A DNA stretch of 64,000 bases from Alphaproteobacteria bacterium (GCA_965220745.1 CBDCQT010000012.1:128001-192000), one strand, 5' to 3'; shown: positions 5,857-60,870, counted from the first letter of the stretch. A program made the numbers and translations. Notes: generated by a model not told the origin, from the sequence alone.

Positions 5857-6888
5857 TCAGTCGGGCTTGCGGGCAAGGAAACAATAGAGCGGTGTGAATA
5901 TGCCCGTTTTGCCGCCCGCGACATAGGCGTTCGCCGTGCGGTCCATCAGTTGGACAACGGCCGCTGAACCATTGGGAAAGAGCCGGAACACCTCCGCCAT
6001 CCGCAGACCCGCGAATATCGCCCTGCGACCCAAGGGCGTCCTGCGAAAAGCGTTGCCCAATGTCCCGCTCCGGCCTTCCATTGGCCGATGCCACGGTATG
6101 CCCTGGCCTTCCCTGTCGTCCCTGTTCGCTGCTTCGATGACGTCGAAGCCCGCAGCCTCAAGCGCGCGATTCACCTCCGAGAACGTGGCGATCTCTTTCA
6201 GGGCAATTCCCCGCTTGAGTTCATCCTTGATAGTGCGGTGACGGCTGTCGCTGGGGTCAAACTTTTCCGTCATGCACATCTCCTGACCCCACAGCAGGGC
6301 TCCCGGTTTGAGCACACGATATATCTCCGCAAACGCGCGCTCCTTGTCCGGCGCGTGGCAGGTCGACTCGATGGCATAACCCGCATCGAACGAGTTGGCC
6401 TCAATCGCACTCATATCCATGAAGTTGCATTTGATATACTCCGCCATATCGTCGAGCCCCGTCTCGATATTCCTCCGCTTGGCCTGTTCCAACTGCTGTT
6501 CGTTATTGTTGAGGCCGACAACCCTGGTGCCGCCTTCGCGGATGACCCGCCGCATGGGACCGCCCACGCCGCAGCCGACATCGACAACCACCATGCCCTC
6601 TCGTAATTCCAGCTTCTCGATCATCAGACGCTGATGGCGAACGACCGAGTCCTCCAGAGATTCCTCGCGCGTCAATGGCGCGAAATGGAGGGACTCGCCC
6701 CACCCGAATTGCATGATTCCGCTGCACAGCTCGTAGTAATCGTTCACCGTCTCGGTGAAGTCATAATCGCCGTCATCGGCATCGGCCCGCTCCATTCTGT
6801 CGAACCGATCGCCGAAACGTGCTACACGACCTCTGACGTCCCGGACTTGGTAAAGGATCCGCAGGTATCTGGACAAACTTGCTAACAT
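5857..6888 (-). CDS. Sterol C24-methyltransferase (SMT/Erg6-like) homolog
   Basis: NDYY..QFGWGESLHFAP, DVGCGVGGP, YAIESTCHAP, EIYRVLKPG and C-terminal GGKTGIFTPLYCFLARKP match SMT regions. Confidence 0.85.
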   Translation of the reverse strand: MLASLSRYLRILYQVRDVRGRVARFGDRFDRMERADADDGDYDFTETVNDYYELCSGIMQFGWGESLHFAPLTREESLEDSVVRHQRLMIEKLELREGMVVVDVGCGVGGPMRRVIREGGTRVVGLNNNEQQLEQAKRRNIETGLDDMAEYIKCNFMDMSAIEANSFDAGYAIESTCHAPDKERAFAEIYRVLKPGALLWGQEMCMTEKFDPSDSRHRTIKDELKRGIALKEIATFSEVNRALEAAGFDVIEAANRDDREGQGIPWHRPMEGRSGTLGNAFRRTPLGRRAIFAGLRMAEVFRLFPNGSAAVVQLMDRTANAYVAGGKTGIFTPLYCFLARKPD

Positions 6889-7325
6889 GTGCTGCCTCGT
6901 TTATTGTCCATCTCGCAGTTTAGCTCTTTGGTAGCGGATGGCAACGACGCCGGAAGCATTTGCTAGTCTTACGGCGGTTTGTCTCCACATCACAAGGGAG
7001 GGATCCAGGCGAGGGGAGGCGCCCTTCGCCGCCGGCACCGGGGAAAAAGACCAAGCGAAGCCGGTTGACGGCTGGTGCCGGGACCATCGACATGGCCCTG
7101 CTGTCGGGCTCATGCGCCGTTCATTTCGCTGACGAACTCAACGGTCGTTTCATTACACTAAAGGCGCCGAGCACGGGCCACTAGCAATGCAGGGGCCGTC
7201 GAGGCGACCCCAAAGACGTGACGGGTGGCGAAAACCGGGCTAAATTTCGCGCGACATGGTGAGAGGGGGCGCTTGTCTGGGAACGATCGGCCCCCATCTC
7301 AGCTCTTATGGGAGGCCTTGGCCCG

Positions 7326-9347
7326 ATGCCCGACTCGGCCGCTACGGCCCAAGAACTGCGTCTGCCCGAGGAGCTTATCCTGATGCTCCTCAACGAGCAG
7401 AACGGCTATTTCCACCAGGTCCCCGGCTGGAATCTGAACTGCGCGGTGGTGGGCGCGGTGCTCGCGGAACTCTCCCTGCTCTCGCGCATTGACACTGATC
7501 TCGATTCGCTGATCCTCGCCGATCCAGCGGAGACGGGCGATCCGGTGCTCGATCCCGTCCTAAAGGAAATCGCCGGGGAGTCCGTTCAACGGGACGCCGT
7601 GTACTGGATCGAACGGCTTGCCGGCAAGGCGGAATCGATCATCGACCACACCCTCGAGCGCTTGGTCGAGCTGAAGATCCTGGAGCATCACGACGGCGAT
7701 TTCTGGACGCTGGCCGCCGCGACGTGGCGCGAGGAGTTGTCCGGTGGTTCCCAGGAAGGCACCGTTGGCCAGTTCGTAAAAACGCGTGTCCTCAAGGCGC
7801 TCTTCACCGACGAGATTCCCGACCCCAGGGACATCATCGTCATCTGCCTCGTCAATACGTGCGACGTCTTTCGCTTCATGTTCGAAATCGACGACGAGAC
7901 CCAAGAGCGGATCGATTTCATTTGCCGGATGGATCTGATCGGCCGTTCCATCGCCGCCGCGGTCGAGCACAACATCTCCAGCCCGTCGCTGCGGCCTTCC
8001 GCGCTGACTAAGAAAATACCCGTCGTCCCCCTGCACAAGCTCTTGCTGAACCCGCGTCTTCGGGGCGGCAACATCGCCGCCATTTTCGCGCACATCGCGG
8101 AAGAACACGGTCCGGTTTTCCAAATCCGTCCTCCGTTCCAGGAACCCACGACCTTCCTCGCCGGGCCCCAAGTCAACCGTTGGATACACCGGAACGGGCG
8201 CATGTATCTGCGGTCCAGGGACTATTTCACCGACATCGAGAAGGTTTATGGCGCGTCCGGGGTGATTGCCTCGCTCGACGGGGCCGACCATTTTCAACTG
8301 CGCAAGGCGATGCAGCCGGGCACTTCCCGCGGGAGGCTGGAGGATCGACTGCATGACCTCTACGGCCATGCCCGCGCGTTTATGGCGGACTGGAATGTGG
8401 GATCGTCGCTGCCGGCGACCAGCATGTGCCGACTGATGATCAACGCGCAGATATCCCCGCTGGTCATCAGCATTGATTCACAGGACTTCGTGGAGGACCT
8501 GATCAGATTCAAAGAGCGCGCGCTCACCACCCACGTGGCCAAAGTTCTGCCCAAGTTCATGCTGAACACCCCATCGATGAAACGTGCGTCAAGGGCCATC
8601 GACATCGGGGTACAGCGGATCCTGGGCCTCCACACGCCCGCCCAGCGGGTCGGTTGCCCCCGGGATCTCGCCGACGACCTGCTCAGCCTCCACGCCAGCG
8701 ACCCGCAGTTCCTGCCCGAATCGAACCTGGCCTTCGCTCTTTCGACGCCCATGCTGGCTAGCATGTATCTGGGAGACGCGTTCGGCTGCGCGCTCTACGC
8801 CATGGCGTCGCAGCCTACGCTCTACGAAAGGATCCGTGCCGAAGCCGACGCCCTCTTTGAGAACGGCGATCCGGATGCCAAGGACTTCGCCGACGAGTCC
8901 ATCGACGTTACGCGGCGCTTCATCTTGGAATGCCTGCGCATGTACCCCATCGTGCCCGCGTCCATCCGCAACGTCATGAATTCATGCGTTGTCGAGGGCC
9001 ACGAGCTGCCCGTGGGCGCGCGCATCGCCATCGCCTCGACGGCGCCGCATTACATGAGCGACGTCTTCCCGGACCCCTTCACATTCGACATCGACCGCTA
9101 TCTGCCGCCGCGCAACGAGCACCGCAGTCCCGGCTATGCGCCTTATGGGCTTGGCACCCACAAATGCCTCGGCTTCCGCTGGGTGGACCTGCAGCTGGCT
9201 GTCAACCTGCTGATGGTCGCACACTACTTCACGCTCAAGGTATCGCCCGCGAATTACAAGCTCCGGATCAGTCCGTTTCCGTCGCTGTCACCGAGCAAGA
9301 AGCTGAAGTTCCGCATTGCCGAGCAGGTGCGCGAGCTGCCCGCCTGA
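7326..9347 (+). CDS. GPP34/GOLPH3-domain-cytochrome P450 fusion protein
   Basis: N-terminal LPEELILMLL..GAVLAELSLLSRI (GPP34-like); C-terminal ECLR (ExxR), FDIDRY and heme motif YGLGTHKCLG. Confidence 0.8.
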   Translation: MPDSAATAQELRLPEELILMLLNEQNGYFHQVPGWNLNCAVVGAVLAELSLLSRIDTDLDSLILADPAETGDPVLDPVLKEIAGESVQRDAVYWIERLAGKAESIIDHTLERLVELKILEHHDGDFWTLAAATWREELSGGSQEGTVGQFVKTRVLKALFTDEIPDPRDIIVICLVNTCDVFRFMFEIDDETQERIDFICRMDLIGRSIAAAVEHNISSPSLRPSALTKKIPVVPLHKLLLNPRLRGGNIAAIFAHIAEEHGPVFQIRPPFQEPTTFLAGPQVNRWIHRNGRMYLRSRDYFTDIEKVYGASGVIASLDGADHFQLRKAMQPGTSRGRLEDRLHDLYGHARAFMADWNVGSSLPATSMCRLMINAQISPLVISIDSQDFVEDLIRFKERALTTHVAKVLPKFMLNTPSMKRASRAIDIGVQRILGLHTPAQRVGCPRDLADDLLSLHASDPQFLPESNLAFALSTPMLASMYLGDAFGCALYAMASQPTLYERIRAEADALFENGDPDAKDFADESIDVTRRFILECLRMYPIVPASIRNVMNSCVVEGHELPVGARIAIASTAPHYMSDVFPDPFTFDIDRYLPPRNEHRSPGYAPYGLGTHKCLGFRWVDLQLAVNLLMVAHYFTLKVSPANYKLRISPFPSLSPSKKLKFRIAEQVRELPA

Positions 9348-9349
9348 CT

Positions 9350-10165
9350 CTACCGCACACGCTTGAGCGCCGTCCGGGTGAAGTCGCCGAGGTCGAGGTC
9401 CGTGCCGAACTCGTAGTCCGACCAGTTCAGCACGGTGCTCTTGCCCGTGAGATGGTTGGTCATCGTTATCGTTCCGGCCCGCCAGAAGCGATCGAGATAG
9501 ACCTCGTAGTCCTCGATGACCATTGTCTTGAGATGCGCCTCCCTGCGATCGAAGAACTCGATCTGCTGGGTGCGAAGCTCCCCCCGGTCGAGCCAGACCA
9601 CCTGGCGGGAATACCCCGAATCCTCGCTGAGGGGGACGCGTTCCAGGACCGCGCATTCGAGATCGCCGCAGGGCTCGTCGCGCAGGTAGCGATGAGCGTA
9701 TTTCTCGACCTCGACGGCGCCCATGTCTTCGTAGGAGAACTCGCTGCCCATAAAGGAGCCGGACTGCTTCGAGGCGCTGATGCGCTTGACCCGCTTCAGG
9801 GCAGGAAGATAGAGCCACTGTTCGTCCGCGTCGTTCTTGTGGGCGTGGACGAGAAACGCAGTTCCCTTGACGTCGCGCGGGCGGTCGAACACGAACAAGG
9901 TGCGATCGCCGTCCTCCTCGACCTCGATGACCTTCAGGCGCAGTTCGCGCTTGCTTTCCTGCCCCCGCTTGTTGCGCAGGACCATGTTCAGGCTTGCGGT
10001 GAAGTTGCCGAAACCCTTCTGGCGTTCGCGGGCTTCGGTGGCGATCTCGAGCCCCGTTTCCTCGGCGCTCTGCGCGTGACCGACCGACGGCTCGTCCGCC
10101 CAGACGAAGGCGGCAAGAAGGATGGCGGACAACGCAAGCGCGGGGTGGGGGAGAGCGACACGCAT
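9350..10165 (-). CDS. LolA-like periplasmic 'outer membrane lipoprotein-sorting' protein
   Basis: Signal peptide; PRDVKGTAFL, QWLYLPALKRVKRI, SFMGSEFSYEDM; AGGAGG RBS. Confidence 0.88.
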   Translation of the reverse strand: MRVALPHPALALSAILLAAFVWADEPSVGHAQSAEETGLEIATEARERQKGFGNFTASLNMVLRNKRGQESKRELRLKVIEVEEDGDRTLFVFDRPRDVKGTAFLVHAHKNDADEQWLYLPALKRVKRISASKQSGSFMGSEFSYEDMGAVEVEKYAHRYLRDEPCGDLECAVLERVPLSEDSGYSRQVVWLDRGELRTQQIEFFDRREAHLKTMVIEDYEVYLDRFWRAGTITMTNHLTGKSTVLNWSDYEFGTDLDLGDFTRTALKRVR

Positions 10166-10437
10166 CACCGTTTCCTCCTGTCGGCGGCCATCGGCGGAGC
10201 GGGGAAAGCGGGACATTGATGGCGGTATCCGGGCAGCGACCGGACCATGTCGTCTCGTTCACCTTCGCCGGAACTTATTCGCACATGGTAGCACGATTCC
10301 TGCCCTGCAAATGAAACCTCCGCTTGAGCGTGTCCGTCTTTGACGGACGCGCGACAGGCCGTGACCGCGGCCCGCCGCTGATGCGGCGCGCCCGCGCAGG
10401 CGCCGGCCACAGGCCGGCTGCCGTGAGCGAAATAGTA

Positions 10438-10520
10438 CGAGAGCGTTTCCGTGTAGAAACACCAAGAGACGATATGGTGGTTTAGAAGTTTGAGCCAATA
10501 TGCGATGGTCGTCCACTTCT
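10438..10520 (+). repeat. Left inverted-repeat end of the element
   Basis: CGAGAGCGTTTCCGT...TGCGATGGTCGTCCACTTCT. Confidence 0.7.
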
Positions 10521-10529
10521 CATGTTGTA

Positions 10530-10542
10530 TATCAGAGGTTTG
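10530..10542 (+). promoter_or_regulatory. IHF consensus site, left end
   Basis: TATCAGAGGTTTG fits WATCARNNNNTTR in an AT-rich tract. Confidence 0.5.
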
Positions 10543-10758
10543 TCAGATATTCAACCATAGAATTTTGAGTACAATGGCCATGGCAGGATTTGCCTGTCTT
10601 GTGGTGATAGTGACACTTTGGTGTTGAAGTGTTCCTCATATGGGCGGTAATCTGCGGCTTATGGGGTGCATCTCGATGATAGATATGTAGTCCGTATGGT
10701 TTCTACGGTATAATATGGGACGATATTGGGAAATCTCCATAGGATAGCGAGCGGGCCG

Positions 10759-11091
10759 ATGCCGGCGAGACAAAAGGGCGAAAAGCGGAAGCAGCGCTGG
10801 GTCGGTGCAACCGATGCCGAATGGGCCGAGATCAGCGAAGGCGCGCAAGCGGCGGGATTGTCCAATTCCGACTACGTCATCCGGTGCTGCCTTGAGGGCA
10901 AGGCGCGGGCCGAGCCGACCGATGCCGCTCTGCCCTCGCCGGTGCTGCAGCGAGCGGTGAAGGCGGTATTGATCCTCGAAGAACTGCAAAGGCTGCGGCT
11001 CGCGAACGACGGCGAGATAGGCGAAGCACTGTGGCGGAGGGCGGTGGGCGAGGTGGACGCCTGGATCAAGGGCGAGGACGATCTGGGATGA
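10759..11091 (+). CDS. Ribbon-helix-helix/MobC-like protein 1
   Basis: RKQRWVGATDAEWAEISEGAQAAGLSNSDYVIRCCL pattern; TATAAT at 10709-10714. Confidence 0.6.
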   Translation: MPARQKGEKRKQRWVGATDAEWAEISEGAQAAGLSNSDYVIRCCLEGKARAEPTDAALPSPVLQRAVKAVLILEELQRLRLANDGEIGEALWRRAVGEVDAWIKGEDDLG

Positions 11092-11104
11092 AGCGGAAGG
11101 TGCC

Positions 11105-11431
11105 GTGATCCTCGCGAAGAAGCGCTGCATCTACTGCTCCCCAGAGACGCGGGAGAAGATGCGGCGGCGGGCCAGGAAGGAGAGGATTCCGCTCTCGCGC
11201 CTGGTCATTCTGTGCTGCCGCCGGGTTGCGAGCGCGAGCGCTCCTCCGGAACCGCCCGGTCATCGCCTGGCGCTTGCCGAGGACGCGCAGCGCCGCCTTT
11301 ACGAGGACAGCCGCGTTCTCGCCCGGTCGAAGGGCATCGTTGTCGATGCGCAGGAAGGCGGGAAGGCGACCCTGGCGATCCATGAAGTGGTTCGTTTTCT
11401 GCTGCTTTGCGAAGAAGAGCAGGAGGCATGA
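11105..11431 (+). CDS. Ribbon-helix-helix-like protein 2
   Basis: KKRCIYCSPETREKMRRRARKERIPLSRLVILCC; GTG start. Confidence 0.55.
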   Translation: MILAKKRCIYCSPETREKMRRRARKERIPLSRLVILCCRRVASASAPPEPPGHRLALAEDAQRRLYEDSRVLARSKGIVVDAQEGGKATLAIHEVVRFLLLCEEEQEA

Positions 11432-11925
11432 GCAAGCCGCGCGTGCGCAGGGCGGGGACCGAACAAACGATTTCCGCGACCGACGAGGAATGGGCCGACG
11501 TCCAGTCGGGGGCGGACGAAGCCAGAATGTCGGTGTCGGCCTGGGTGGTCCATTGCGTGTTGACGGTGGACCCCCTGCCGCGGAAGCATCGCCGGCTGGT
11601 GCTCGACGAGAAACAGCAGAAATCTGTCTCACGGGCCGTGAGCGAGCATGCACGGAGCCTGCGCTCGGACGTCGACGCGCCTTCGCAGGTCACCGACGAC
11701 CTCGGCGCGCTGCTGAAGGCGCGGCTTGAGACGATGGACCGGCAGGACCGGGGCAGCGAAGCCGCGACGCTCCTTCGGCAGGTATTCGGCGAGGAGCGGG
11801 CGGCAATCATCGCCGCCGCCTTCATGCCGAATGTACGGATGACGCCGGAAGCGGCGCAAAAACCGCAGAAGCCCGCACCCCGAAAGAAAAGGGTCCGCGA
11901 CTCCGGTCAGGGCGAGTTGTTCTGA
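11428..11925 (+). CDS. Ribbon-helix-helix/MobC-like protein 3
   Basis: EQTISATDEEWADVQSGADEARMSVSAWVVHCVL; ATGA coupling and AGGAGG RBS. Confidence 0.65.
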   Translation: MSKPRVRRAGTEQTISATDEEWADVQSGADEARMSVSAWVVHCVLTVDPLPRKHRRLVLDEKQQKSVSRAVSEHARSLRSDVDAPSQVTDDLGALLKARLETMDRQDRGSEAATLLRQVFGEERAAIIAAAFMPNVRMTPEAAQKPQKPAPRKKRVRDSGQGELF

Positions 11926-12230
11926 TTGCAGGCAGGCAGATCGGGCGAACAGGTGCGGCAGTCAAGAGAGAGCGAGGTCGACCCGCGCGGGCCTCTGCCC
12001 CCGACGGTGTCGGGCTGGAAAGACGGGGCACCTCCGATGACGTCCCTTGATCATCGAGGCAAGGGCCGAGGGGCTCCGGCCGGTCGACGAACGGCTGGAG
12101 CGCTCGCCGCGCTGCATCGAGCTCGCCTGGGCCAGGCGCTGAAACGGCGTCCTGCCCTCGACCACGGTGGGCGGCGGCCTCTCGCCGCTCCTGTCGCTCC
12201 AGTGAAGCAGGGGGCATCGGCGGGACAATC

Positions 12231-13598
12231 ATGGCTCTCGAAGTCGTAAAGGCGTTCACCCTGGAGCACGTCCGGTGGCTCGCGCCCCTCGAGGAATGGG
12301 CCCTGCGCGAGGTGAAGGGCGCAGCGGTAGAGGGCAGGGAGCCGAAGCCGGAGGCGCGAGGGATCTACGACCCCTTGACCGAGGACATCCGCAACGGGAA
12401 CTGCTGGATCCTCTGCAATTGCCTTCCCCATGAGCCGGAGCGGCCGGTCATCGTGCCCGCTCGGAGAACGCGCGGCATCAGTCTCGGCAACCTGCCCGAC
12501 GCTCCGGTGCCGCATGACGGGAGTTGCGTCTTCCGCCTGCGCGGACACTCGATAGACACCTCCGGTTATCTCTTCAATCCGCTGACGTACGACCGGCAGG
12601 GCGCGGCTTCGTTGGAACGCGACCGGAGGCGCGAACCCCGGGGCCGGGGCGGTCGGTCGGTCCCGGTCGTGGCCCACGTGCTCAAGTGCTTCATCCGGGA
12701 GGCGCGGCTGCACACGTTGGCAGGCGCGGAGCGGTTCCCGTCTCCGGCGGACTGGCTCGCGGAACTCGCGCGCGCCGCGGCCGCGTTCCCCGTTGCGCCG
12801 AATGTTCCGGCGTCGGAGGTGCTGTTGACCGACCCCGCGAGATGGCGCTCGGGCGAATTCCAGAAAAGGCTGGACGAGCGCGCACAGAAGTGGCCGAAGG
12901 GTTCCCCGCCCTGCGGCTTCCTGTGCTGGGACGCGGACGACGTGGAGGACCACGAGATCAACGGCAAGACCACGGGCGCCGGCCACGTGAGGGTGACCTC
13001 TCGCGTGGTCTCTCCGCGCGTCTACGACAACAGGGTGGTGGGGCCCTATCTCTTCCTGGGGGCGCTGGAACAGTCCGAAGACCGATCCGGGTGGGAGTGC
13101 TGCATGGCCTATGCACATCCCATCGCCGCACTGGAATTGCCGATCCCGGTCGAGTCGGAATACGAGCGCCAGGCGCTCCTGTCGCTTCCACAACTGGTCC
13201 GGGATCTCCAGAGCGACACGAAGCTTGAGGAGGCGCTCGGCGGGGTCGTCGGGGTCGAGCTCCAGAAGCCTCTCTTCGAGATAGGGGTGCGCGAAGGCCC
13301 CTGTCGACCGGACGTCCTTCTCACCGTGACCCGCCCTGGCGGTCCGGTCCCCCGTGTCCCCGACGATGCCTTCGACGGCAGCGACAAGGTGCACTACGTC
13401 ATCGAGGTCATGGGGTTCGACGACGAGAAATACAAGAAACGGAAGGAAAAGACCCACCGCCGGATGGAGCGGCTCGGCCGGGTGATCCCCCTGGAGGGGT
13501 GGACGTTCGAGGCCGCTCACTACGGCCTGGAGCGCCAGCTCGAGAGGATCGCCTTGCGGATCGCGAAGGATCTCATCCGGCGATGGGGAGCAAGCTGA
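12231..13598 (+). CDS. DUF1173-like protein (N-terminal CxC..HxxxC motif, C-terminal PD-(D/E)xK-like nuclease)
   Basis: WILCNC...PHDGSCVF; PVESEYE, KPLFE, RPDVLL, IEVMGF, YKKRK. Confidence 0.6.
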   Translation: MALEVVKAFTLEHVRWLAPLEEWALREVKGAAVEGREPKPEARGIYDPLTEDIRNGNCWILCNCLPHEPERPVIVPARRTRGISLGNLPDAPVPHDGSCVFRLRGHSIDTSGYLFNPLTYDRQGAASLERDRRREPRGRGGRSVPVVAHVLKCFIREARLHTLAGAERFPSPADWLAELARAAAAFPVAPNVPASEVLLTDPARWRSGEFQKRLDERAQKWPKGSPPCGFLCWDADDVEDHEINGKTTGAGHVRVTSRVVSPRVYDNRVVGPYLFLGALEQSEDRSGWECCMAYAHPIAALELPIPVESEYERQALLSLPQLVRDLQSDTKLEEALGGVVGVELQKPLFEIGVREGPCRPDVLLTVTRPGGPVPRVPDDAFDGSDKVHYVIEVMGFDDEKYKKRKEKTHRRMERLGRVIPLEGWTFEAAHYGLERQLERIALRIAKDLIRRWGAS

Positions 13599-13766
13599 CG
13601 GTTCCGGTTCCCGCGGCGGGTTCCCGGCGCCCCGAAAACGCCGAACCGGCGGCGCGTCGGAGGCGGCCGGCAGTCGCAGGAACCTCACTGGGCTCCGCGA
13701 CGGCCTGGAGCGCACATGGTACGGCACACTAACATGCCGGATCGGCTTCCCGGGAATGCGACGACA

Positions 13767-16700
13767 CTAAGGCATCCAGGGGCGCCTGCGCATGACGTAG
13801 TGCCGTCCATGCTGCTGGTTCAGTTCGACCCGTATCTTGTCCAGCTCCATCTTTCTGGCGCGCGCCTTGGACCAGCGTTCGTCCTCGTCGTCCCGGAATG
13901 CGCGCCATCGCGCGAATGGGAAGAGTTCGTCGAGCGAAAGGCTGAATTCCCGGCAAGGCTCGTCGTCCGAACGCGAGATCTCGCGGAGCTTGCAGCTGTC
14001 CTCCGCTTCGGTCTTCCCCGCCGTTCTCTCGACCACCTCCAGCTCGATCTGCACGACCGTCGGGCGGCCCAGGCGCGCGCTCGCCGGCGCAGCCGTTTCC
14101 GATCGGCCGACCTCGCTGCACCACAACCGGTCGCCCCTGGTGAGATCCCGTGAGCAGTCGAGTGGATAGCTGGCCGGGGGTTCCGGCCACTGGCGCGCCC
14201 GCTCCACCTCGCGAAGCCTCTCGTCGCTCCACTCCGCGCGATGGACGCGGCCCGCGAGCTTCGTTGCGGACATTCGCGTCACCGGCTCTTCGGCTGTGCG
14301 CCCCGTCGCCGGCGCAGCCCATTCCAGCTCCACCTCGTCGTGGCGGGTACACCCGCCGGTCCGTCCGGGCTGGAGCACCACCGCTTCGCGTTGCGGCTCG
14401 TCGTCCGATCGCTGCAACCTGATCCTGTCGCCCGCGAGCAGCGGTTCCGCGCCCCACCAACGGCGGTCGAACGCGTGCCCGACGGCGGGATCGCGAAGCC
14501 GTGCCAGCTCCGCGCCCACCATCTCCGCGATCCGGTCCTCCTCCAGCTCGGGAACGGTTTTCCGCTCGCTTGCGCGCCGAAGTCTCTGCTCGATGCGCTC
14601 GAGCATATCCGGGCGACCTCGCCAGCGCTCCCGGGTGCCCTCGTCCAGTACCCACTGGGCGTCGTCCTCGAACCGGAGGCTTCGTTCTTGCCACGCCGGC
14701 CATTCGGCAAGCAGCGACAACGGCAGTGTCTCCCGCGTCGCGCGTTCCTCGAGCCGGCGGTATTGCTCGTCTACCTGATTCGCTTCCCGGAACAGGCTTT
14801 GGAACGTCATCCATTCGATTGAGAGGGCGGCATGCTCGTCGATCTCGGCCTGCAGCCGGCGCCGGGCCGCCTCTTCCAGGTCCGGTTCCTTCGCCAGGCG
14901 CTCCGCTCGGGCGATGGACTTGTCGTACCCCTCGTCACCCACGGGCGAGATGCCCTGCGCCAGCGCACCGGGTTTCGTCTCCTCGATCCGGTTCATCACC
15001 GAGACGAAGCGGTCGAGCAGGTGGTGACTCTCCAGCCGCTTCAGAGCGGCAGTCAGCGCTTCCCTGCCATCCGGTATCCGGTCGAGATGGGGAGCATAGG
15101 TGTCTTCGTCCTTGTGGATTGCTCGTCCCGTGGTCAGCAGCTTCTCCGGAAAGTCGGTGAGGGACCGGTAGCCCGGCAGGCCGATGACGAGGAAATCAGA
15201 ATCCTGCCGGGCACGCCGCTTCGCTTCTTCCTGCAGGTCCTTCCAGTACTGCCCATGTTGCCCGGCTCCCTGGAGGAAACCGTCGACGGTGGCGCGCTCC
15301 GTGCTGCATCGACTGTCGTATTCCAGCACCCGCTCCACCATGTTACGTGCCTGGTCCGGCAAGCCCTCCCTCCGGCCGAGCGCGCGGGCCTCCTCGACGA
15401 GCTCTTCCCAGCCCGGCAGATAGAAGGCGATGACGTTCCCGGCCTTCGCCCGGTCCGCCATCGCCAGACGCTTCTCGAACACCCCCGCCCAGGCCAGATC
15501 GTGCTTGCCGAGTTCATCGAGCTGATCGACGGCGGCCGCGATCTCCCCCGCTTCATCCTTCAACCGGTCGAGATGGGGTTGCCATGTATCATGGGGCCGC
15601 CATGTATCATGGGGCCGCCATGTATCATGGGGCCGCCATGTATCATGGGGCCGCCATGTATCCGGATCTTCACGCTTGGAATCCGGCACTTCACGCATGG
15701 CGCGCCAGCCTTCGCCCAGCTCTCCGCAACGCGCCAGCCAGTCGGCATAGCCTGCCAGTTCGGTGGGCGGGGTGAATGTAGATCGGTACTCCGTGCTGGC
15801 GCGGTCCTCCAACTTCGTGTGCTCGTCCAGAAGCCCGACCGCAGAGGCATGAAGTGCGACGATTGCCGCCTTCCGTTCTTCGCAGGCCTCTGCATGGTCA
15901 AGGACCTCCCTGGCTGCTGCCAGCGCCCATGCAGGAAGGGGGGATCGCCTGGTAAGTGTCGTGGCCCGCCCGACAAGATCGTCATGGCCCTCGGCGTAAA
16001 ACGGAATCGCGCCTTCAGCCGCGGCCCGCGCCGCCACCTCGCGGCGTATCGTGTCGAATGCGAGCACCGCGTCGTCGACCGCCAGCAGGTCGGCGAGCTG
16101 CCCGAGGCGCTCTGAGATCGTTCCGCCCACTTCGCCCGCGCGCTCGCCCAGGGCCGCGAGCAGGACCTTGCCGTTCGCCGAAAGACGTCCCGACATCTCC
16201 CGCCACTCCGGGTAGTCTTCCAGTCCGGCAACCGGGCACGTCGCGGACTCGGCGGCCTCGTCCAGGCCGCGCCTCGTTGCGTCATGCGCATCGAGCAGTC
16301 CGAGGAACTCCACTGCCGCCCTGTCCCCCTCACGGCAGGCGCGGTCGTAGGCGAGCAGGCCGTCCACGTCCTCCCGTGTCAGGGCCGGCAGGTCCGGCTT
16401 CCCGGCGAGCTCCCGCGCGCGTCCGATCAGCGCCCCGTAGCCCTCCACCAGGAACAACACCGTAGCCTCGCGCCGCGCCCGCCGTTCAAGGGCCTCCCAT
16501 TCGTCGCGCAGCGTCCAGACAGGCTCCTTCTCCGCCAGCAGCCGGACGATCTCCTCAGGCTCAATCTCGATCGGAGCGTCGACCGCCTCGATCGCCGTCG
16601 GCCGCTCCCCGGTGTTGTCGGCCAGAACCTTCACCAGCTGCTCGGCATTGTCGGTGAGCACCACCGCCCGCTCCCGCGCCCGGCTGATCTCGACGTAGAA

Positions 16701-19298: not shown

Positions 19299-19420
19299 GA
19301 CGCAGGATCATAGCGGTCCGGCGGTGATGTCGCGGTCAAAATACGACCGGAGTTGGGGCTTGCGCTCCACTATAGGCGCACTTGTGCCGGCCCATCGTTG
19401 TAGGGGGCTTGGCGCTTTGT

Positions 19421-23374: not shown

Positions 23375-23439
23375 GAATTTGAAAGCTTCGCTGCTACAAG
23401 TGCGCGGCACCTTCACTACGGACAGGCAAATATAGCATC

Positions 23440-49712: not shown

Positions 49713-49826
49713 GTTTCGCCATCAACGAATCCTGTCCAAGCTACCATACCGCCAGCGCGACGTGAGCGGCTCGCAGGTCCACCCGTTTGGCGAGCGGCGC
49801 AAGGCGAGAAAAACGCGGTCTTTAAC

Positions 49827-54670: not shown

Positions 54671-55834
54671 TCACGAAGCCCACGATTCGCCGGTTTCCAT
54701 TGCGGCCTCGACGGCCATTCCTATGCGCTCTGCGGCGGCTTGCAGGTCGCGGTCGCCGACGTGGGCGTATCGCAGGGTCATCACGGGGTCGGCGTGCCCG
54801 AGCATGCGCGCGACGGTGGACAGGGGAACGCCCCGGGCGACCGCCTGGCTGGCAACGGTATGCCTGAGATCGTGCAGGCGGACGTCGTCAAGCCCGGCTT
54901 CCTTCCGCGCCCGGCGCCAGAGGCACAGGGAATGTGAAAGCGGTTTGTCCGGATGCCTCGGGGAGGGGAACACGTAAGGGCTTGTGGTACGCGGCTGGCG
55001 GGCGAGGATGGCCTGCGCGGCCTGGCTCAGCCAGACCCTCCGCGGCCCGGTCTTGGAGTCCGCGAGGTTGAGACGGTCGCCGTCGACCTCCGACCATCGG
55101 AGCTTCAGGACCTCGCCCGCTCGGCAGCCGGTGAGCAGGAGCAACCGGATGACGTCGGCCTGCTGCCGGCGGGAGGGCCGCTCCCCGACCAGCCGGTCGA
55201 GGACGCGGTGAAGCCTCTCGATCTCTTCGGTGGAGAGGAACCGGGTGAGTTTCGGGCGAGGGTTCTTCGTGATGCCCTTGACGGGAGCGGTTCCGGCATG
55301 GCCGGCGGCGAGGGCGGCGTTCATGATCTGGCCGAGGATCTCGAGCGCTTTGTTGGCTCCGCCCGGCGCGGTGCGGCTGTAGGCGTCGAACCACCGCTCG
55401 ACGTCGATCCGCCGGATGACGTCCAGCGGGATGCGGCCGAAGGCGGGGATAAGCTGCCGCTCAAGCACACGATTGGCGAATTGGCAGGACGACGGGGCAC
55501 AGCGGCGGCGGTACGCCGGCAACCACTCATCGAGGACGAAGTCGCGAAACAGGGGAGCGCCGGAACGGCCTTCCGCCGGACACGGAGCGATTCCCAGGCG
55601 GAGCGCTAGGGCTCGCTTCCGGGCGTTCCCGACGGTCATGAGCGCGGCCGGGCCGACGGTCGCCCTGACCGGCTCTCCCTGGACGCGCCCGTGCCAGACG
55701 AAGCTGCGATGCCCGGACGGGCGCACCCGCACGCCGAGGCCGGGTACTTCGGTGTCCCACACCACGTATTCCGTGGTGTGCGGCTTCAACTTGCCGACGC
55801 CCGCGTCGGTCAGCCGGACCCTCCGCCCCTTCAC
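54671..55834 (-). CDS. Tyrosine integrase B with N-terminal arm-binding-like domain
   Basis: VWDTEVPGLGVRV; TGCR, DSKTG, HDLRH, LGH, RYAH all intact; GTG start overlaps the integrase A stop (GTGA). Confidence 0.9.
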   Translation of the reverse strand: MKGRRVRLTDAGVGKLKPHTTEYVVWDTEVPGLGVRVRPSGHRSFVWHGRVQGEPVRATVGPAALMTVGNARKRALALRLGIAPCPAEGRSGAPLFRDFVLDEWLPAYRRRCAPSSCQFANRVLERQLIPAFGRIPLDVIRRIDVERWFDAYSRTAPGGANKALEILGQIMNAALAAGHAGTAPVKGITKNPRPKLTRFLSTEEIERLHRVLDRLVGERPSRRQQADVIRLLLLTGCRAGEVLKLRWSEVDGDRLNLADSKTGPRRVWLSQAAQAILARQPRTTSPYVFPSPRHPDKPLSHSLCLWRRARKEAGLDDVRLHDLRHTVASQAVARGVPLSTVARMLGHADPVMTLRYAHVGDRDLQAAAERIGMAVEAAMETGESWAS

Positions 55835-56958
55835 GCCTGCCTCCCCGACAGGACGGGAGACAGGGTCTCGACCGCTTCGCGAACCGTGGCGTCGGACAGG
55901 TGGGCGTATTTCAGGGTGGTCGACGCGCTCTCGTGACCGAGCAGGCGGCCGACGGTGCGCACGCTCTCGCCGCAGAGCAGCGCCATGCTGGCGTAGGAAT
56001 GTCTCGTGTCGTGCAGGCGGACATCCTGCAGCCCGGCTTCCTCCCTCACGCCGCGCCAGAAGTGATCCAGCCACATCCATGGAGTGCGCCGACCGGCAAC
56101 CGGGAAGACGAATCCGGACGACCGGGGCAGACTGTCGAGGACATCGCGTGCCGCCTCGCACAGCCAGACCGTGCGCGGGCCGACTTTGCTGTCGGGCAGA
56201 TAAAGCCGCCCCTCCCGGTAGGAGCGCCATTGGAGGGTCAGGATCTCCGACTTGCGGCACCCGGTGAGCAGCAGCAGGCGCACGGCGGCTACGTGCAGGG
56301 GGCGGCTGGCCTCGTACCGGCCCAGCACTGCGGCGAGGCGGCGATACTCCTCGGGGGTCAGGAAGCGCTCTGACCGCCCCTGCCGGTAGCGGCGGATGCC
56401 GGCGCAGGGGTTGCTGTTCTCCGGGCGGTATCCCCAGGCCTCGGCCTGCTGCATGATGACCGAGAGGACCGGCGCCGAGCGGTTCGCGGCGGCGGGCGTT
56501 GCGTGGAGCCCGCGGAACCAGGCCCGCACCTCCTGCCGGGTTATCTCTCCGATGGGCCTGCCCGCGAAGAAGGGCAGGATCTGCCGGCGGAGGTAGGCCC
56601 GGTTCACTTCCAGGGTGCGCGGCTTCCAGCGGCGCCCGTAGCGGTCGAAGACCTCCTCGGCGACCGTCTCGAAGAGGGTGCCGCCGGGGTCCGCCGCATC
56701 GGGCTCCCGACCGTCGCGTAGCGCGGCCAGCATTAATCTGGCCCTGGCCCGCGCCTCGGGCTCGGCGATCGTGGCCGCGTCGCCTATGATCTTCCAGACC
56801 CGTTTGCCCCTGTGCTGGCTGTGGATGAAGTAGCGCGTAGAACCGGAGGGCATGACCCGGACGCCGTACCCCTTGAGTTCGGCGTCCCGGACATCGCGCA
56901 CCTTGCGGCGGGGCCGAAGGGCGTCGACCCTGCGTTGGGTGAGTCGGATGATTGGCAT
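55831..56958 (-). CDS. Tyrosine integrase A with N-terminal arm-binding-like domain
   Basis: [12 protein letters not shown]; TGCR, DSKVG, HDTRH, LGH, KYAH all intact. Confidence 0.9.
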
Positions 56959-57025
56959 GATTGCGTGTCTCCGATCTGTTGCAGCGGGGTGCGGAATCGG
57001 CTTGAATTCCGCGCCCAGTGGCAAT

Positions 57026-57105
57026 AGAAACGGAAGACCATTGCAATCGAATCAGTTACTTAGCACCGAAGGTGCGTGTTTCCGTGTGAAACGGAAACGC
57101 TCTCG
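57026..57105 (-). repeat. Right inverted-repeat end of the element, with IHF consensus and internal palindrome
   Basis: rc CGAGAGCGTTTCCGT...TGCAATGGTCTTCCGTTTCT; AATCAGTTACTTA at 57050-57062; GTTTCCGT-N5-ACGGAAAC at 57078-57098. Confidence 0.7.
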
Positions 57106-57175
57106 CAGGCGGCCATTCCCGCGAAGACAGGACCAGATGGCGACTACTCTCTGGAGCCTCGCACGCCAATCCGGT

Positions 57176-58444
57176 TCAAAAGCCGTAGTCCAGGTTCACT
57201 CCGATGTAGCTGTCGCGCCGCACGTCATACACGACATCGTCCTCGTCGATCCCCACATAGGCGGAGGCCTCCACATGCAAGAACCAGTTCTCCGAAAGGC
57301 GGCGCTTGAATTCAGTGCTTAGAACGCGACTGTTGCCGCTCAGGGATTCCAGAACGCTGACCGTGAATTCGGTACTCTGTTCGTCGTTCAGCCCGAGGCG
57401 CGCGACTAGCAGTATGTCGTTCTCGAACGCGTTGGTCGCCCATCGGCCGCGCCCGTCGCGCGTCCATTCGCCGATCAGGCTCAGATCAGCGTCCGAGTCC
57501 CACACGGCATAGATCGTGTATTCGCCGCCCGCGACGAACGCCGCGTAGTCTTCTTCTTCGTATTTCAGATACTGGTCGAGCCGCCGGTTCTGCAAGCCGG
57601 CGCGGTGTATGGCTTCCAGCTTGAGAAGCCACGGGCCGGTTGTGAGCTGGGTATCCAGGCCGAATTGGGTGATCTGCTCGTAGTATGGCGCCAGAACGAA
57701 TTCGGAGCCGGCCAGCGTCGGCAAGAGAGTGGGCTCGCGGCTGGTACCATCGAACACGCTGAGCCCGACGTCGACCGGCCCGAAGCTGCCGCTGTACCGG
57801 GCCGCGAGATCAAGATGCCACTCTTCCGCTCCGGACTCGTACGAGGTCAAGCCGTGATCCACGACAAGCCCGGGACGCAGGCGACCGCGCTGCCCTGGGA
57901 AGGTGCGCTCGCGGTGCCAGGTCAGCCCGAACAACTCCAGCGCCCCCCAGTCCCCCGACCAGGTGAAATGAACCATAGGCTGGCCCAGTTTGGTCTTCTC
58001 GTCCGGGTGTTCCACCAAGTCGGTCTGATTGACGATATCGACCAGGGACCGCGATTCGACGACACCCCAGAAGACTCGATCGACGCCCAGACGCAGCTCC
58101 CATTCATCCTCGCCAATATCGCCGTACAATAGAACAAAGGCCTCGCGAAGGTCGGCGTGGGTGCGGTCCGGATCCCCGGCGTCGTATCTGTAGAACGGCG
58201 TTACAGTAATGCTTCTGCCTTCGTCGTCCTCCATATAGGCCGTTGCCTCTACGGCGAGGCCGCTCGCATGCGAGCGCTGGCCGGGATGCGTGGAACTCTT
58301 GGGGTACAACCGGGTTTCCATGGAAAGACGCCCGGAAAGCTCGATCTGATCGGTGATCCCGTTGTCGGCGTGCGCTCCAGCCCCGAGCACTGAGAGCAGC
58401 ATCCACAGCGACGCCGCGAGAAGGACGGGGAAGCGCGCAATCAT
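57176..58444 (-). CDS. Outer-membrane beta-barrel protein of MMPL/LolA-like clusters
   Basis: Signal peptide; DLREA, VFWGVVESRSLVDIVNQTD, KLGQPM; C-terminal YGF. Confidence 0.78.
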   Translation of the reverse strand: MIARFPVLLAASLWMLLSVLGAGAHADNGITDQIELSGRLSMETRLYPKSSTHPGQRSHASGLAVEATAYMEDDEGRSITVTPFYRYDAGDPDRTHADLREAFVLLYGDIGEDEWELRLGVDRVFWGVVESRSLVDIVNQTDLVEHPDEKTKLGQPMVHFTWSGDWGALELFGLTWHRERTFPGQRGRLRPGLVVDHGLTSYESGAEEWHLDLAARYSGSFGPVDVGLSVFDGTSREPTLLPTLAGSEFVLAPYYEQITQFGLDTQLTTGPWLLKLEAIHRAGLQNRRLDQYLKYEEEDYAAFVAGGEYTIYAVWDSDADLSLIGEWTRDGRGRWATNAFENDILLVARLGLNDEQSTEFTVSVLESLSGNSRVLSTEFKRRLSENWFLHVEASAYVGIDEDDVVYDVRRDSYIGVNLDYGF

Positions 58445-58530
58445 CGCGGCCCGGTCGGCTCCGGCAGGCGGGGACGATGCGTTCTGGCCGGCCGGCTATG
58501 GATCGAGAGAGTCATGTTGGGCAGACCGGT

Positions 58531-60870
58531 TCAAGCGCTCTCCTCAGGCGCAGTCTTGCTCCTGCGCCACTTCTTTCCCAACCCGTCGAGAAAGATCAGC
58601 AGCGGCGGGAGGAGCAGGAAATCCGCCAGCAGGGCGATGATGACCGTCGTTCCTGCCAGCAGACCGAGCGCCTGGTTGTTGGCCATCCCCGACGCGCCGA
58701 ACACCATGAATCCCAGCGCAAAGAGGACGGTCGTCGCCAACAGGGCCTTGCCCACGGAGCCGAAGGCGGAGCGGACGGACTCCGGCGGCGGCTCTCCGCT
58801 CTTTCGCGCTCTCAGGTACTTGGTCATGAAGTGGATCGTGTCGTCCACAATGATGCCGAAGGCGATGGCGGTAACGACCGAGGCCGAGACTCCGAGCTCT
58901 CCGACCGCGTACCCCCAAAGTCCCATCGCCATGGCGGCAGGAACAAAGTTCGGTATCAGGCTGATCAGGCCGAAGCGCACGCTTCTGAAGATGAAGATCA
59001 GCAGCAACGACACGATAGCCATCGCGATGATGGTGCCGATCAGCATCTTTTCGATGTTTCTCTGAATCGAATGAGCGCCCACGATGGCGATGCCGGTGGC
59101 CGAGGTTTCCAGGCTGGGCGCATTCTGCCCGAGCCAGTCGCGCGCGCGCTCGTCGAGCGCCAGCTTCTCACGGGTGGACAGGGCCTTCAGCACCACCGTG
59201 ACGCGCGTTGCCGAGCGTTCGATATCGATGAGATTGTTCAGATCGAGGCCCACCGGCAGCGAAAATTCGTAAAGCAACAGGTACTGGGCGGCCAGATCGG
59301 AGTCGTCCGGAATGCTGTAGAACGCGGGGTCGTCGCTGTTCAGGTTCTTGTTCAGGCGCTTCATGATGTCGGCGATGCTGAAGACGTGGGCAACCTCCGG
59401 CTGCGTCCGATACCACTCCGCAAACGCGTCGACCTGCTTCAGATACTCCACATCCGTGATGCTGTTCTCCTGCCCGGTGCCGAGCGAGTACTCGAAGGGC
59501 TCCAGGCCCGTGAAATTATCGCTTATGAAATCCGTCGATCGTCGGAACTCGTAGCTTTCGCTAAGAAGCTCGAGGTGATTGTCGTTGAGCTCTATGCGCG
59601 AGATACCGGCCATGAGCGCGACAACGACAACGGCGAACGAGCAAAATACGACCAGGCGCCGGGAAACAACAAAACGCCCGAAACGCTCGATGAAGCGATC
59701 GAAAAGGTCCGTCTTTCCTACGCGCTCGGGCCGGACACGCATGGGCATGAGCGAGAGAAACGCGGGCAGGAGCGTCACCGAGTAGACGAAGGCAATCAGC
59801 GAGCCGAAGGCCACGATGTTGCCCATAACCCGAAACGGCGGCATGTCCGAAAAGTTCAGGCTTAGGAAGCCGATCGCGGTCGTGATCGAGGTGAGAAAGA
59901 CGGGCCAGACGTTGAGTCGCAGGGAATGAATCGCAGCTTCCCTGCGGTCCATCCCCTGGCGCATGCCCGCGAGCATTGCCTCGATTATATGCACGCAATG
60001 GGCGACCGTGATCGCCATCAAGACGAACAGTGCCGCGCCGCTCTCGCCGTAGAGCTTGAGGCCGGCCCAGCCGGCAAAGCCCAGTGCCGACAGGAGAACG
60101 GCAATGATCATCAGGACGATCGTGACCGTTCCCCAGATCGAGCGGAGCATGAGAAAGGCGACGATCAGCATGACGCCGAGCGCGATGGGGCCGAGGATGC
60201 CCATGTCCTCGTCCAACGCGTCGCGCACGGCACGATTGAGGAAAAGCGCGCCGGTCAGGTAATAGCCGGTGGTCGAATACGTTGCGCGCGCTGCGGCGAC
60301 GGTCTCGTTGAGATAGTCGACGACGTCGACCTTGGCCTGCTGTCGGTCCTCGCCGGGAAGCGAAACGCTGATGTGCAGTCCGGCAACGCGACCGTCCCGG
60401 GCAACCAGGCGCCCGGCGACTTCCTCGGTGCCGAGCGCGATCGTCTGAATTCGTTCTATGTCGGCATCGCTCAGGGAAGCGGCGTCGTCGATGAGCGGCT
60501 CGACGATCAGCTCGTCTTCGAGGCCTTCGCTATGCGAGTAGTTGGTGATCGAATCGATGCGGGTGACATAGGGGGTTCGCCAGAGCAGCTCGGTCATCTC
60601 TTCCAGGGCGACCAGCGTTTCCCGCGTGAAAATGGTGCCGTCCTGCGGCGCGACGGCAAGCAGCACGGTGTCGGAGAACGCGTAGGTGTCCTCCATTTCG
60701 TCAAGCGCGACGAGGTTGGGGTCGTCCTTGCTGAAATGATTGCGAAAGTCGACGTCGACATTGACGATGTACTGGGCGCCCGCGACGAGTGCCAGTATGA
60801 CAAGCAGGGAGAGTAAAAGGGTCAGCCATCGCCGACCCATAATGCGCGCTATGCAGGCTTCCAGATTCAT
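58531..60870 (-). CDS. MMPL/RND-family lipid transporter
   Basis: Two-repeat RND topology; TSITTAIGFLSL, GIIVDDTIHF, LLPPLL. Confidence 0.9.
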   Translation of the reverse strand: MNLEACIARIMGRRWLTLLLSLLVILALVAGAQYIVNVDVDFRNHFSKDDPNLVALDEMEDTYAFSDTVLLAVAPQDGTIFTRETLVALEEMTELLWRTPYVTRIDSITNYSHSEGLEDELIVEPLIDDAASLSDADIERIQTIALGTEEVAGRLVARDGRVAGLHISVSLPGEDRQQAKVDVVDYLNETVAAARATYSTTGYYLTGALFLNRAVRDALDEDMGILGPIALGVMLIVAFLMLRSIWGTVTIVLMIIAVLLSALGFAGWAGLKLYGESGAALFVLMAITVAHCVHIIEAMLAGMRQGMDRREAAIHSLRLNVWPVFLTSITTAIGFLSLNFSDMPPFRVMGNIVAFGSLIAFVYSVTLLPAFLSLMPMRVRPERVGKTDLFDRFIERFGRFVVSRRLVVFCSFAVVVVALMAGISRIELNDNHLELLSESYEFRRSTDFISDNFTGLEPFEYSLGTGQENSITDVEYLKQVDAFAEWYRTQPEVAHVFSIADIMKRLNKNLNSDDPAFYSIPDDSDLAAQYLLLYEFSLPVGLDLNNLIDIERSATRVTVVLKALSTREKLALDERARDWLGQNAPSLETSATGIAIVGAHSIQRNIEKMLIGTIIAMAIVSLLLIFIFRSVRFGLISLIPNFVPAAMAMGLWGYAVGELGVSASVVTAIAFGIIVDDTIHFMTKYLRARKSGEPPPESVRSAFGSVGKALLATTVLFALGFMVFGASGMANNQALGLLAGTTVIIALLADFLLLPPLLIFLDGLGKKWRRSKTAPEESA

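Follow-up and report, generated by a model that had tools for sequence, protein, structure and literature searches.

The one bacterial sterol transporter that has been described, BstABC of Methylococcus capsulatus (PMC10942540), is tied to bacterial sterol synthesis and is proposed to carry cell-made sterols to the outer membrane by means of an MMPL/RND inner-membrane protein, a periplasmic carrier and an outer-membrane-associated component (PMC10942540, PMC11713862). Pumps of the HAE3 group are reported to move other isoprenoids: HpnN moves hopanoids, polycyclic triterpenoids, from the inner towards the outer membrane and reportedly acts without dedicated periplasmic or outer-membrane partners (PMC6394551, PMC11713862), and AmeABCD of Castellaniella defragrans, with LolA-superfamily and barrel partners, exports hydrophobic isoprenoids and terpenes (PMC6394551). 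Sterol C-24 methyltransferases (SMTs) of sponge symbionts alkylate desmosterol and 24-methylenecholesterol in vitro (PMC10070321), sterol core clusters are reported to be enriched and horizontally transferred in sponge metagenome-assembled genomes (MAGs) (PMC9531527), and GPP34_L, a fusion of GPP34 and cytochrome P450 domains restricted to sponge-associated bacteria of many phyla, has been proposed to be a secreted effector that binds phosphatidylinositol 4-phosphate (PI4P) (PMC11706023). In this paper we analyse a stretch of 64,000 nucleotides (the window; contig C12:128001-192000) from an alphaproteobacterial genome of 4.82 Mb (13 contigs, approximately 67% G+C), in which an SMT gene (SMT1), a GPP34-P450 fusion gene (GP450) and a trio of envelope genes, encoding a LolA_like periplasmic protein, an outer-membrane barrel and an MMPL/RND pump, lie around a mobile island (Table 1). 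From the linkage of these genes we think it rather probable that the five are this genome's share of a horizontally mobile cassette for sterol tailoring and export in sponge-associated bacteria. The individual parts have been published; neither their link to one another nor their link to a transporter was found in those parts of the literature that were searched.

The linkage was followed in the neighbourhood of GP450 in other genomes. A scan of one genome per species gave 471 confirmed GP450 loci, and the counts below refer to the 80 best, for which flanks of at most 10 kb were included at either end; 18 of these loci span less than 20 kb. Neighbour families were obtained by clustering six-frame open reading frames (ORFs) and were named via Pfam; RND pumps were counted only if they fell inside clusters. 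The 80 loci span Alpha- and Gammaproteobacteria, Nitrospirales, Latescibacterota, Chloroflexota, Gemmatimonadota, Binatia, Opitutales and others, and across these phyla GP450 is 65-72% identical to the window protein. An SMT lies within 10 kb of GP450 in 54 of the 80 loci and within 300 bp in 40, the latter being homologues of any type with 39-99% identity. A Rieske oxygenase with a KshA_C domain is found near GP450 in 56 loci, an FAD amine-oxidase-like gene (Amino_oxidase; AmOx) in 44 and ERG4/24 in 14. A pump of the RND superfamily lies within 3 kb in 61 loci, and the density of RND genes is 1.36 per 10 kb within that distance versus 0.02 per 10 kb farther out. Three types of pump occupy this position. 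In Chloroflexota it is an MMPL that carries a sterol-sensing/Patched domain (25 loci), whereas Latescibacterota, Gemmatimonadota and others have AcrB, accompanied by HlyD and an outer-membrane factor (28 loci); the third type is that of the window (10 loci, with LolA_like in seven and the barrel in four). The type of pump tracks the host lineage, and the occurrence of three non-orthologous types at the same place argues for repeated recruitment.

Some of these loci join the cassette to sterol synthesis itself. In all five Nitrospirales loci a contiguous run encodes MMPL, a fusion of squalene epoxidase and oxidosqualene cyclase (SE-OSC), CYP51, ERG4, SdmA, SdmB, a second methyltransferase (SMT2), AmOx, Rieske, SMT1 and GP450, the MMPL beside the SE-OSC fusion being 50-55% identical to that of the window. 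In a member of the Rhodospirillales (L096) LolA_like (59%) and the barrel (52%) follow directly after SE-OSC, and across 40 cassette genomes all nine MMPL matches with at least 70% identity to the window protein lie at GP450 loci. The original prediction had proposed a five-gene sterol module split by an island and had named a failure of its homologues to co-occur elsewhere as grounds for dropping it. They do co-occur, in one locus (L121) in the same order, so this refutation fails; the linkage of the five recurs, and what has to be revised is the extent of the unit, which is larger and a mosaic that takes in the KshA-like Rieske, the FAD amine-oxidase-like protein and ERG4/24. The present counts show linkage of the long GPP34 form to SMT, Rieske, sterol-core and RND genes; the flanks analysed in the available text of PMC11706023 are those of the short form alone. 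In two Nitrospirales genomes (L118, L119) a tandem pair of genes with weak similarity to SMT2 (29-32%) comes after a more distant MMPL (40-41% identical), which may be another pairing of a methyltransferase and a pump.

In a quick maximum-likelihood tree of 40 MMPLs, two branches are consistently sterol-linked. One holds 11 proteobacterial proteins, including that of the window, all 11 of which are adjacent to GP450 (SH-aLRT 100), and the other holds six Nitrospirales proteins adjoining the sterol cluster (support 100). The 17 proteins of a third, likewise supported clade are generic: LolA_like is adjacent in 13 and the barrel as well in 10, and none lies beside sterol genes.

Within the order, for which a sample of 49 genomes was taken, the full-length fusion occurs only in the genus of the window, where nine of the 20 other members carry it at 53% identity or more and three more at 33-37%. 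Among the 21 genomes of the genus, GP450 and an MMPL of the first clade are both present in eight and both lacking in 10; two have GP450 without the MMPL, one of these copies being truncated by insertion sequence (IS)-like genes, and one, a 67%-complete genome, has the MMPL without GP450. GP450 and MMPL are 2.4-4.1 kb apart in seven of the eight genomes that have both, when the window is counted without its island. Eight of the 21 have an SMT1-type gene and eight a cyclase. No cyclase accompanies SMT1, GP450 and the trio in G075 (96% complete) or in G081 (100% complete); L121, the locus of G075, has precisely the gene order of the window (SMT1 > GP450 > < LolA < barrel < MMPL), with no island. 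Four further loci (L122-L125) have GP450 and the trio together with the Rieske gene, the amine-oxidase-like gene or both.

All five genes are real and lie on the strands that had been predicted, as judged by Pfam, by a match to a solved structure and by AlphaFold2 (AF2) and Foldseek. SMT1 has a class I S-adenosylmethionine methyltransferase domain (Methyltransf_11, 70.1 bits) followed by Sterol_MT_C (61.2 bits; cut-off 21.7), the domain order of the SMT/Erg6 family, and is 45% identical to SMT2 of the core sterol cluster in the same genome. Its translation contains the motifs FGWG and VDVGCGVGGP, which we take to be SMT signatures. By analogy with the symbiont enzymes assayed in PMC10070321, SMT1 is a putative methyltransferase of the delta-24 sterol side chain.

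GP450 has the architecture of GPP34_L, with an N-terminal GPP34 domain (residues 19-220; 98.3 bits, cut-off 29.1) and a C-terminal p450 domain (residues 253-666; 109.5 bits) in one protein, and its setting fits as well, since words of the locus occur in sponge-metagenome runs. The heme-cysteine region, GTHKCLG, is intact, and all 15 sequences compared share C620. Relatives number in the thousands, and both domains are present in each of the 120 best. On direct reading the N-terminus is hydrophilic with no obvious signal peptide. GP450 and LolA_like are convergent genes whose stop codons are 2 nt apart. Stand-alone GPP34 genes also occur in the genus, mostly two or three per genome (range one to four); they encode proteins of approximately 230-260 aa that are 36-43% identical to the N-terminal domain of the fusion. 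The genome studied here has such genes at C12:816591-817307 and C13:226598-227218, one copy having an in-frame TGA.

The protein that we call LolA_like matches PF17131 (200.7 bits, E 2.1e-59; positions 3-184 of the 184 in the profile) and resembles solved members of this family (PDB 3bk5, E 4.7e-82; 9tp6, E 2.3e-34). Its likely start is internal, at M18, and is followed by a Sec-type signal. A different ORF, 9288-10262 on the minus strand, was rejected as the LolA gene because it is an arginine-rich wrong frame that has no Pfam match and overlaps the true one. A scan for promoters and terminators around the LolA gene gave only consensus-level sites, located inside the island, and these were set aside. 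The barrel matched no Pfam family, and an Atlas search added only clusters named hypothetical protein. Its translation begins with a signal-like helix and ends in phenylalanine (...DYGF), and its AF2 model (pLDDT 92.5, pTM 0.86) is all-beta with approximately 20 strands, as in outer-membrane barrels. The top Foldseek matches are OmpU, MOMP, AlgE and OccK (E 6.6e-09 and weaker); there are 230 PDB matches at E<=0.001, and the top ones listed are all porins, AlgE or Occ channels. Representatives of this family number 2086 at E<=0.001. Against DUF1302, the barrel family of AmeABCD, the protein scores 12.2 bits (E 0.088), below the cut-off of 23.2, and among 30 Atlas matches one cluster has DUF1302 on 35% of its members, so that the barrel may be, at most, a distant DUF1302 relative.

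The MMPL protein matches PF03176 in two stretches (140.6 bits) and, marginally, the Sterol-sensing domain (23.2 bits, cut-off 22.3). Its best NCBIfam model is TIGR00921 HAE3, at 160.3 bits under a curated 351.9, which by its profile scores makes it a divergent HAE3 member. The ATG at 60870, where the locus had originally been ended, is a likelier start for this protein than the GTG. The ORFs beside it (61008-61460 and 61847-62275) have no Pfam match, and there is no extra gene between the genes of the trio. In another part of the genome an MMPL gene at C5:51261-53564 has a stronger match to the sterol-sensing domain (45.6 bits); it belongs to a second trio, which has a TrwC/T4CP gene and a gene for a C39-peptidase ABC exporter in its vicinity.

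A complex of LolA_like and the mature barrel was modelled with an ipSAE of 0.79 (runs 0.79, 0.82 and 0.78), the best of three controls reaching 0.00. The 0.79 mark is reached by 58 of 80 solved complexes and by two of 110 mismatched pairs, counts which apply only roughly, our own alignments having been used for the model. At least 84% of contacts are common to the runs, the partner has a pLDDT of at least 86, and the modelled contacts of LolA_like encircle the whole barrel like a plug or cap. They involve barrel residues around 123-128, 161-168 and 382-388 and LolA_like residues around 112-115, 140-157 and 280-288. The model supports binding of LolA_like to the barrel.

Compared with the described systems, the trio shares with BstABC its general layout of inner-membrane MMPL/RND protein, periplasmic carrier and outer-membrane component; the periplasmic partner, however, has a LolA_like fold whereas BstB is PhnD-like, and the outer-membrane partner is an integral porin-fold barrel whereas BstC is of TRAP type. 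The BstA model (NF045600) gives 41 bits with the window protein and 38.1 bits as the best score genome-wide, at the same gene, with a cut-off of 1400, which upholds the earlier statement that the composition differs from BstABC. With HpnN the trio shares a HAE3/MMPL pump, and the window protein scores 120 bits against 751.85 for TIGR03480 and 59.3 bits against 1100 for NF052374, so no HpnN orthologue was found in it. With neither a BstA nor a HpnN orthologue at hand, another sterol carrier would be needed. The trio also resembles AmeABCD and the DUF1302/DUF1329/COG4447/RND cluster, both of which combine a HAE3 pump, a barrel and a LolA-superfamily protein (PMC6394551; 10.1101/072470). The proteins of the window are smaller, however: DUF1329 has 451 aa whereas LolA_like (PF17131) has 288 aa, DUF1302 has 605 aa whereas the window barrel has 422 aa, and the context of AmeABCD is monoterpene catabolism whereas that of the window is sterol genes. 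The gene order in the window is MMPL-barrel-LolA, and no fourth gene of the COG4447/BNR kind was seen there, in a search that was not aimed at COGs.

The sterol literature was compared in the same manner. The available text of PMC10070321 does not mention a P450, a Rieske oxygenase or a transporter, and in PMC9531527 the passages checked for the words sterol, steroid and oxidosqualene do not mention a GPP34-P450, a KshA-like Rieske protein or a transporter. No link of GPP34-P450 to sterol genes or to a transporter was found in the literature, supplementary gene tables not being covered.

The original prediction was correct that the window holds no squalene epoxidase or cyclase. The genome-wide search for an oxidosqualene cyclase (OSC) which it recommended finds one on contig C13, where positions 14688-23948 encode an SdmB-like dehydrogenase, an SdmA-like Rieske protein, an ERG4/24 reductase, a P450 in the position of CYP51, the SE-OSC fusion and, on the opposite strand, SMT2; transposases flank the cluster. 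This is the published "CSG" layout of SdmB/SdmA-like genes, ERG24, CYP51, cyclase and opposite-strand SMT (PMC9531527). SE-OSC is a single frame of 1150 aa (C13:19399-22851; L008:11400-14852) with an N-terminal FAD_binding_3/SE part and the SQHop_cyclase N and C domains after residue 496, and scores 751 bits with TIGR03463 versus only 278 with the hopene cyclase model. All OSC-type matches in 11 cassette genomes and eight genomes of the genus are frames of 1143-1416 aa, one of them with an internal TAG, and the fusion appears to be general in this group. The Rieske (C11), AmOx and second ERG4/24 (C10) genes are singletons on other contigs, surrounded by unrelated genes with no further cluster, and none of the Rieske, AmOx and ERG4 proteins receives a specific name from NCBIfam. 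Next to the singleton gene for the KshA-like Rieske protein (C11:517000-518739; L099:9014-9739) is one for a periplasmic lipid-binding protein of the MlaC family, maybe by chance.

A host-derived sterol, which had been suggested as a possible substrate, is thus not required here, as C13 carries a full sterol cluster; where relatives lack a cyclase, such a supply is the simplest reading. OSC-type matches above 700 bits occur in 11 of the 40 cassette genomes (five Nitrospirales and six Proteobacteria), and none was found in the Chloroflexota, Latescibacterota, Longimicrobiales, Binatia and Poriferihabitaceae cassette genomes that were tested. Cyclase clusters are reported from some members of several of those phyla (PMC9531527), so this absence is valid only for the genomes tested.

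The island that divides the trio was located by comparison with L010, a public MAG contig, in which positions 9928-13019 correspond to window 7235-10326 (98.25% identity) and 13016-17649 to 57102-61736 (97.78% identity). L010 thus joins window 10326 directly to 57102, a natural empty site which makes the trio consecutive, as the original prediction had obtained by removing the island on paper. Of its two predicted ends, the right (57105) was within 4 bp and the left (10438) lay approximately 110 bp too far in. The island sits between the genes for the barrel and LolA_like, in a spacer of 184 nt, and leaves every coding sequence intact. With an integrase at its end, a relaxase and an empty site in a relative, it is an integrative mobilisable or conjugative element. 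It also carries IS elements, and its metabolic cargo comprises a ring-hydroxylating oxygenase, a dimethylformamidase-like protein, an amidase and two ABC systems. There is no tRNA gene in the window and hence no tRNA as integration target, and just one imperfect short repeat is visible at the junctions. An inverted hairpin across the junctions first proposed lies inside the island by the L010 comparison and is therefore not the target site. Contigs from four of four public runs break at 10326. The summed contig depth of window 10327-10615 is 10- to 40-fold above its surroundings in three DNA runs, and this depth, with the many contigs that start matching at 10326, indicates the same island end in many other genomic contexts. 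Stretches without cover and many small joints seen at 90% likeness in run contigs were ascribed to relatives in other organisms and were not used. Two tandem tyrosine integrases (54671-57046), a TrwC relaxase, a 354-aa TrwC fragment and rve-type IS copies between them (13767-22761) make the island look like a composite of at least two elements.

Table 1. Positions in the window of the five cassette genes, of the island and of its principal genes.
Feature	Position	Strand	Basis
SMT1, sterol C-24 methyltransferase family, 343 aa	5857-6888	-	Pfam
GPP34-P450 fusion (GP450), 679 aa	7308-9347	+	Pfam
LolA_like periplasmic protein, 288 aa	9350-10216	-	PF17131, PDB 3bk5
Integrative mobilisable island, 46,775 bp	10327-57101		Empty site in L010
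Island TrwC relaxase-helicase, 1843 aa	13767-19298	-	TrwC 249.2 bits, AAA_30 165.2 bits
Second island integrase	~54758-55813	-	Residues 412-763 of ORF 54671-57046
Island tyrosine integrase, right end	55831-57024	-	Phage_integrase, Arm-DNA-bind_3, Phage_int_M, SAM_3 domains
Outer-membrane beta-barrel, 422 aa, modelled partner of LolA_like	57176-58444	-	AF2 fold, Foldseek
HAE3-type MMPL/RND inner-membrane pump, 798 aa from GTG	58531-60927	-	PF03176, TIGR00921

The DNA of the five genes has a G+C content of 60-63% versus 66-69% per contig genome-wide, and the scattered Rieske and AmOx genes fail a filter of GC3 > 0.78 that their neighbours pass; the low G+C of the cassette genes is consistent with recent acquisition. 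Words of window 5857-10326 are found at a share of 0.52-0.64 in runs labelled sponge metagenome from three studies, and this segment is also present in one coral-metagenome study and in coded organisms. The DNA upstream of GP450 varies among near-identical relatives. L010 shares no DNA to the left of window 7235. In L012, which has SMT1, approximately 5.8 kb including an IS110 transposase replaces the approximately 0.7 kb of the window between 5054 and 5768; an AAA_22/DUF3991 fragment lies around 5036-5701 in the window. Two genes from SMT1 is a gene for a WD40-repeat protein (3718-4773) that is 97% conserved in L012; eukaryotic-like proteins of this kind are common in sponge symbionts.

Several observations weigh against a sterol cassette. 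The P450 domain of GP450 is only distantly related to any sterol P450, the closest solved structures being CYP51 enzymes at E 3.7e-17. Generic MMPL-LolA_like-barrel trios, 50-65% identical, lie far from sterol genes in Nitrospirales and Latescibacterota, and since the generic clade is sister to the sterol-linked Nitrospirales clade, the transporter family as such is not sterol-specific; the genome of the window itself has a second barrel and LolA_like at C5:43472-45435 (L097; 54% and 61% identical). No RND gene lies within 10 kb of GP450 in 17 of the 80 loci, mostly Nitrospirales, and because the loci are kin by descent or transfer the counts are not independent. The exact order of the five genes recurs in one other genome alone, that of L121. 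SMT1 is absent from the nearest relative (L010/G072); in L012/G080, where SMT1 is present, GP450 is truncated at about residue 611-623 by IS-like genes and the trio is missing. One RNA library (share 0.15) contains short contigs of SMT1, GP450 and LolA_like that are 96-99% identical, a weak hint of expression for which DNA carry-over is possible.

The generic trios and the paralogous set on C5 also favour the reading that the trio is a general exporter of hydrophobes or outer-membrane lipids, that only SMT1 and GP450 act on sterols, and that their adjacency reflects shared mobility. AmeABCD is reported to give monoterpene tolerance (PMC6394551), and cofitness of the DUF1302/DUF1329/RND group suggests export of a cell-envelope component (10.1101/072470). 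We nevertheless consider a general exporter unlikely, because the window clade of MMPLs is adjacent to GP450 in every one of its sampled members and every match of 70% or more lies at a GP450 locus, other lineages have different RND pumps at the same position, and LolA_like and barrel follow SE-OSC in L096 as MMPL flanks it in Nitrospirales. Less probable again is that the fusion is a released symbiosis effector which binds host PI4P and blocks phagosome maturation, with neighbours that merely travel with it and a trio that is an unrelated transporter. Evasion of phagocytosis has been proposed for the long forms, 656 of 663 of which combine GPP34 and P450 and which are found in sponge symbionts only (PMC11706023); the region of the window is rich in mobile elements, and stand-alone GPP34 genes are frequent in the genus. 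GP450, however, begins without a signal peptide on direct reading, has no secretion system adjacent to it and, as a P450, requires cytoplasmic redox partners. It also lies inside sterol biosynthesis operons in five of five Nitrospirales and abuts an SMT in half of the loci, which co-transfer alone does not explain. The available text of PMC11706023 is without the words sterol, methyltransferase, RND and MMPL, so that the sterol context was not weighed there.

Two further readings keep the enzymes and the pump together and change the substrate or the purpose. If the substrate were a non-sterol isoprenoid (a hopanoid, another triterpenoid or a squalene derivative) that is methylated in the manner of SMTs and exported in the fashion of HpnN, itself a HAE3 pump, then the separate squalene-hopene cyclase (SHC) of this genome (TIGR01507, 769.7 bits) and the SHC-like matches in Chloroflexota cassette genomes that have no OSC would find a place; yet the cyclase model has no match in 11 of 40 genomes that still carry the cassette, such blanks including nine of nine Latescibacterota (one with a 19.5-bit trace), both Longimicrobiales, Poriferihabitaceae, two Dehalococcoidia and one alphaproteobacterium, and the Sterol_MT_C domain and the linkage to OSC, CYP51 and SdmAB indicate sterols. 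We hold such a substrate to be very unlikely. Degradation or detoxification of host steroids, with the P450 acting on the side chain, the KshA-like Rieske protein and the FAD oxidase on the rings and the pump expelling intermediates, seems to us the least credible, even though the best solved relatives of the Rieske protein are 3-ketosteroid 9-alpha-hydroxylases (E 2.2e-21) and sponge metagenomes are reported to contain genes for steroid catabolism (PMC5790920). The partners that stay constant are of biosynthetic types (SMT and ERG4/24, and the whole pathway in Nitrospirales), and the conserved neighbour families include no genes for beta-oxidation or meta-cleavage.

For the sterol tailoring-and-export cassette we infer a sterol as the substrate of both P450 and pump. 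SMT1 would alkylate the sterol side chain in the cytoplasmic membrane, and GP450 would oxidise or desaturate the sterol; its P450 part, which has no other anchor, would be kept on the membrane by the GPP34 domain. Two more enzymes of the cassette, the KshA-like Rieske oxygenase and the FAD oxidoreductase, would here be supplied from elsewhere in the genome. A proton-driven HAE3/MMPL pump may then pull the product from the inner membrane and hand it to periplasmic LolA_like, which would dock on the 422-aa barrel, so that the sterol enters or crosses the outer membrane. Since RND pumps generally act as exporters, export is likelier than uptake, the original prediction having offered both. The substrate could be made de novo by way of the SE-OSC cluster on C13, and in relatives without a cyclase it would have to come from the host or from neighbouring cells. 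In the window, the 46.8-kb island parts LolA_like from its operon partners.

A wider proposal, which we make tentatively and regard as doubtful in its full extent, is that the cassette is mobile across ten or more phyla, that most of its carriers are unable to cyclise oxidosqualene, and that they take sterols from hosts or neighbours, rebuild the side chains with the SMT, GPP34-P450, Rieske and FAD enzymes and re-export the products via RND systems appropriate to each lineage. Bacteria would then make part of the unusual sponge sterols (24-isopropyl, 26-methyl), and the trio would be a second, BstABC-independent sterol transport machine.

It is a long-standing question which organisms make the sponge sterols with unusual alkylated side chains, and it has a bearing on the use of 24-isopropylcholestane as the oldest animal biomarker. 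The locus and its relatives offer candidate partners for the symbiont SMTs in the form of a P450, an oxygenase and a flavoenzyme, together with candidate transporters by which a hydrophobic sterol product could leave the cell. They give the sponge-specific GPP34-P450 family a testable function other than that of an effector, and they suggest that BstABC is not the only kind of sterol transporter in bacteria, the second kind having a modelled interface at which LolA_like may dock on the barrel.

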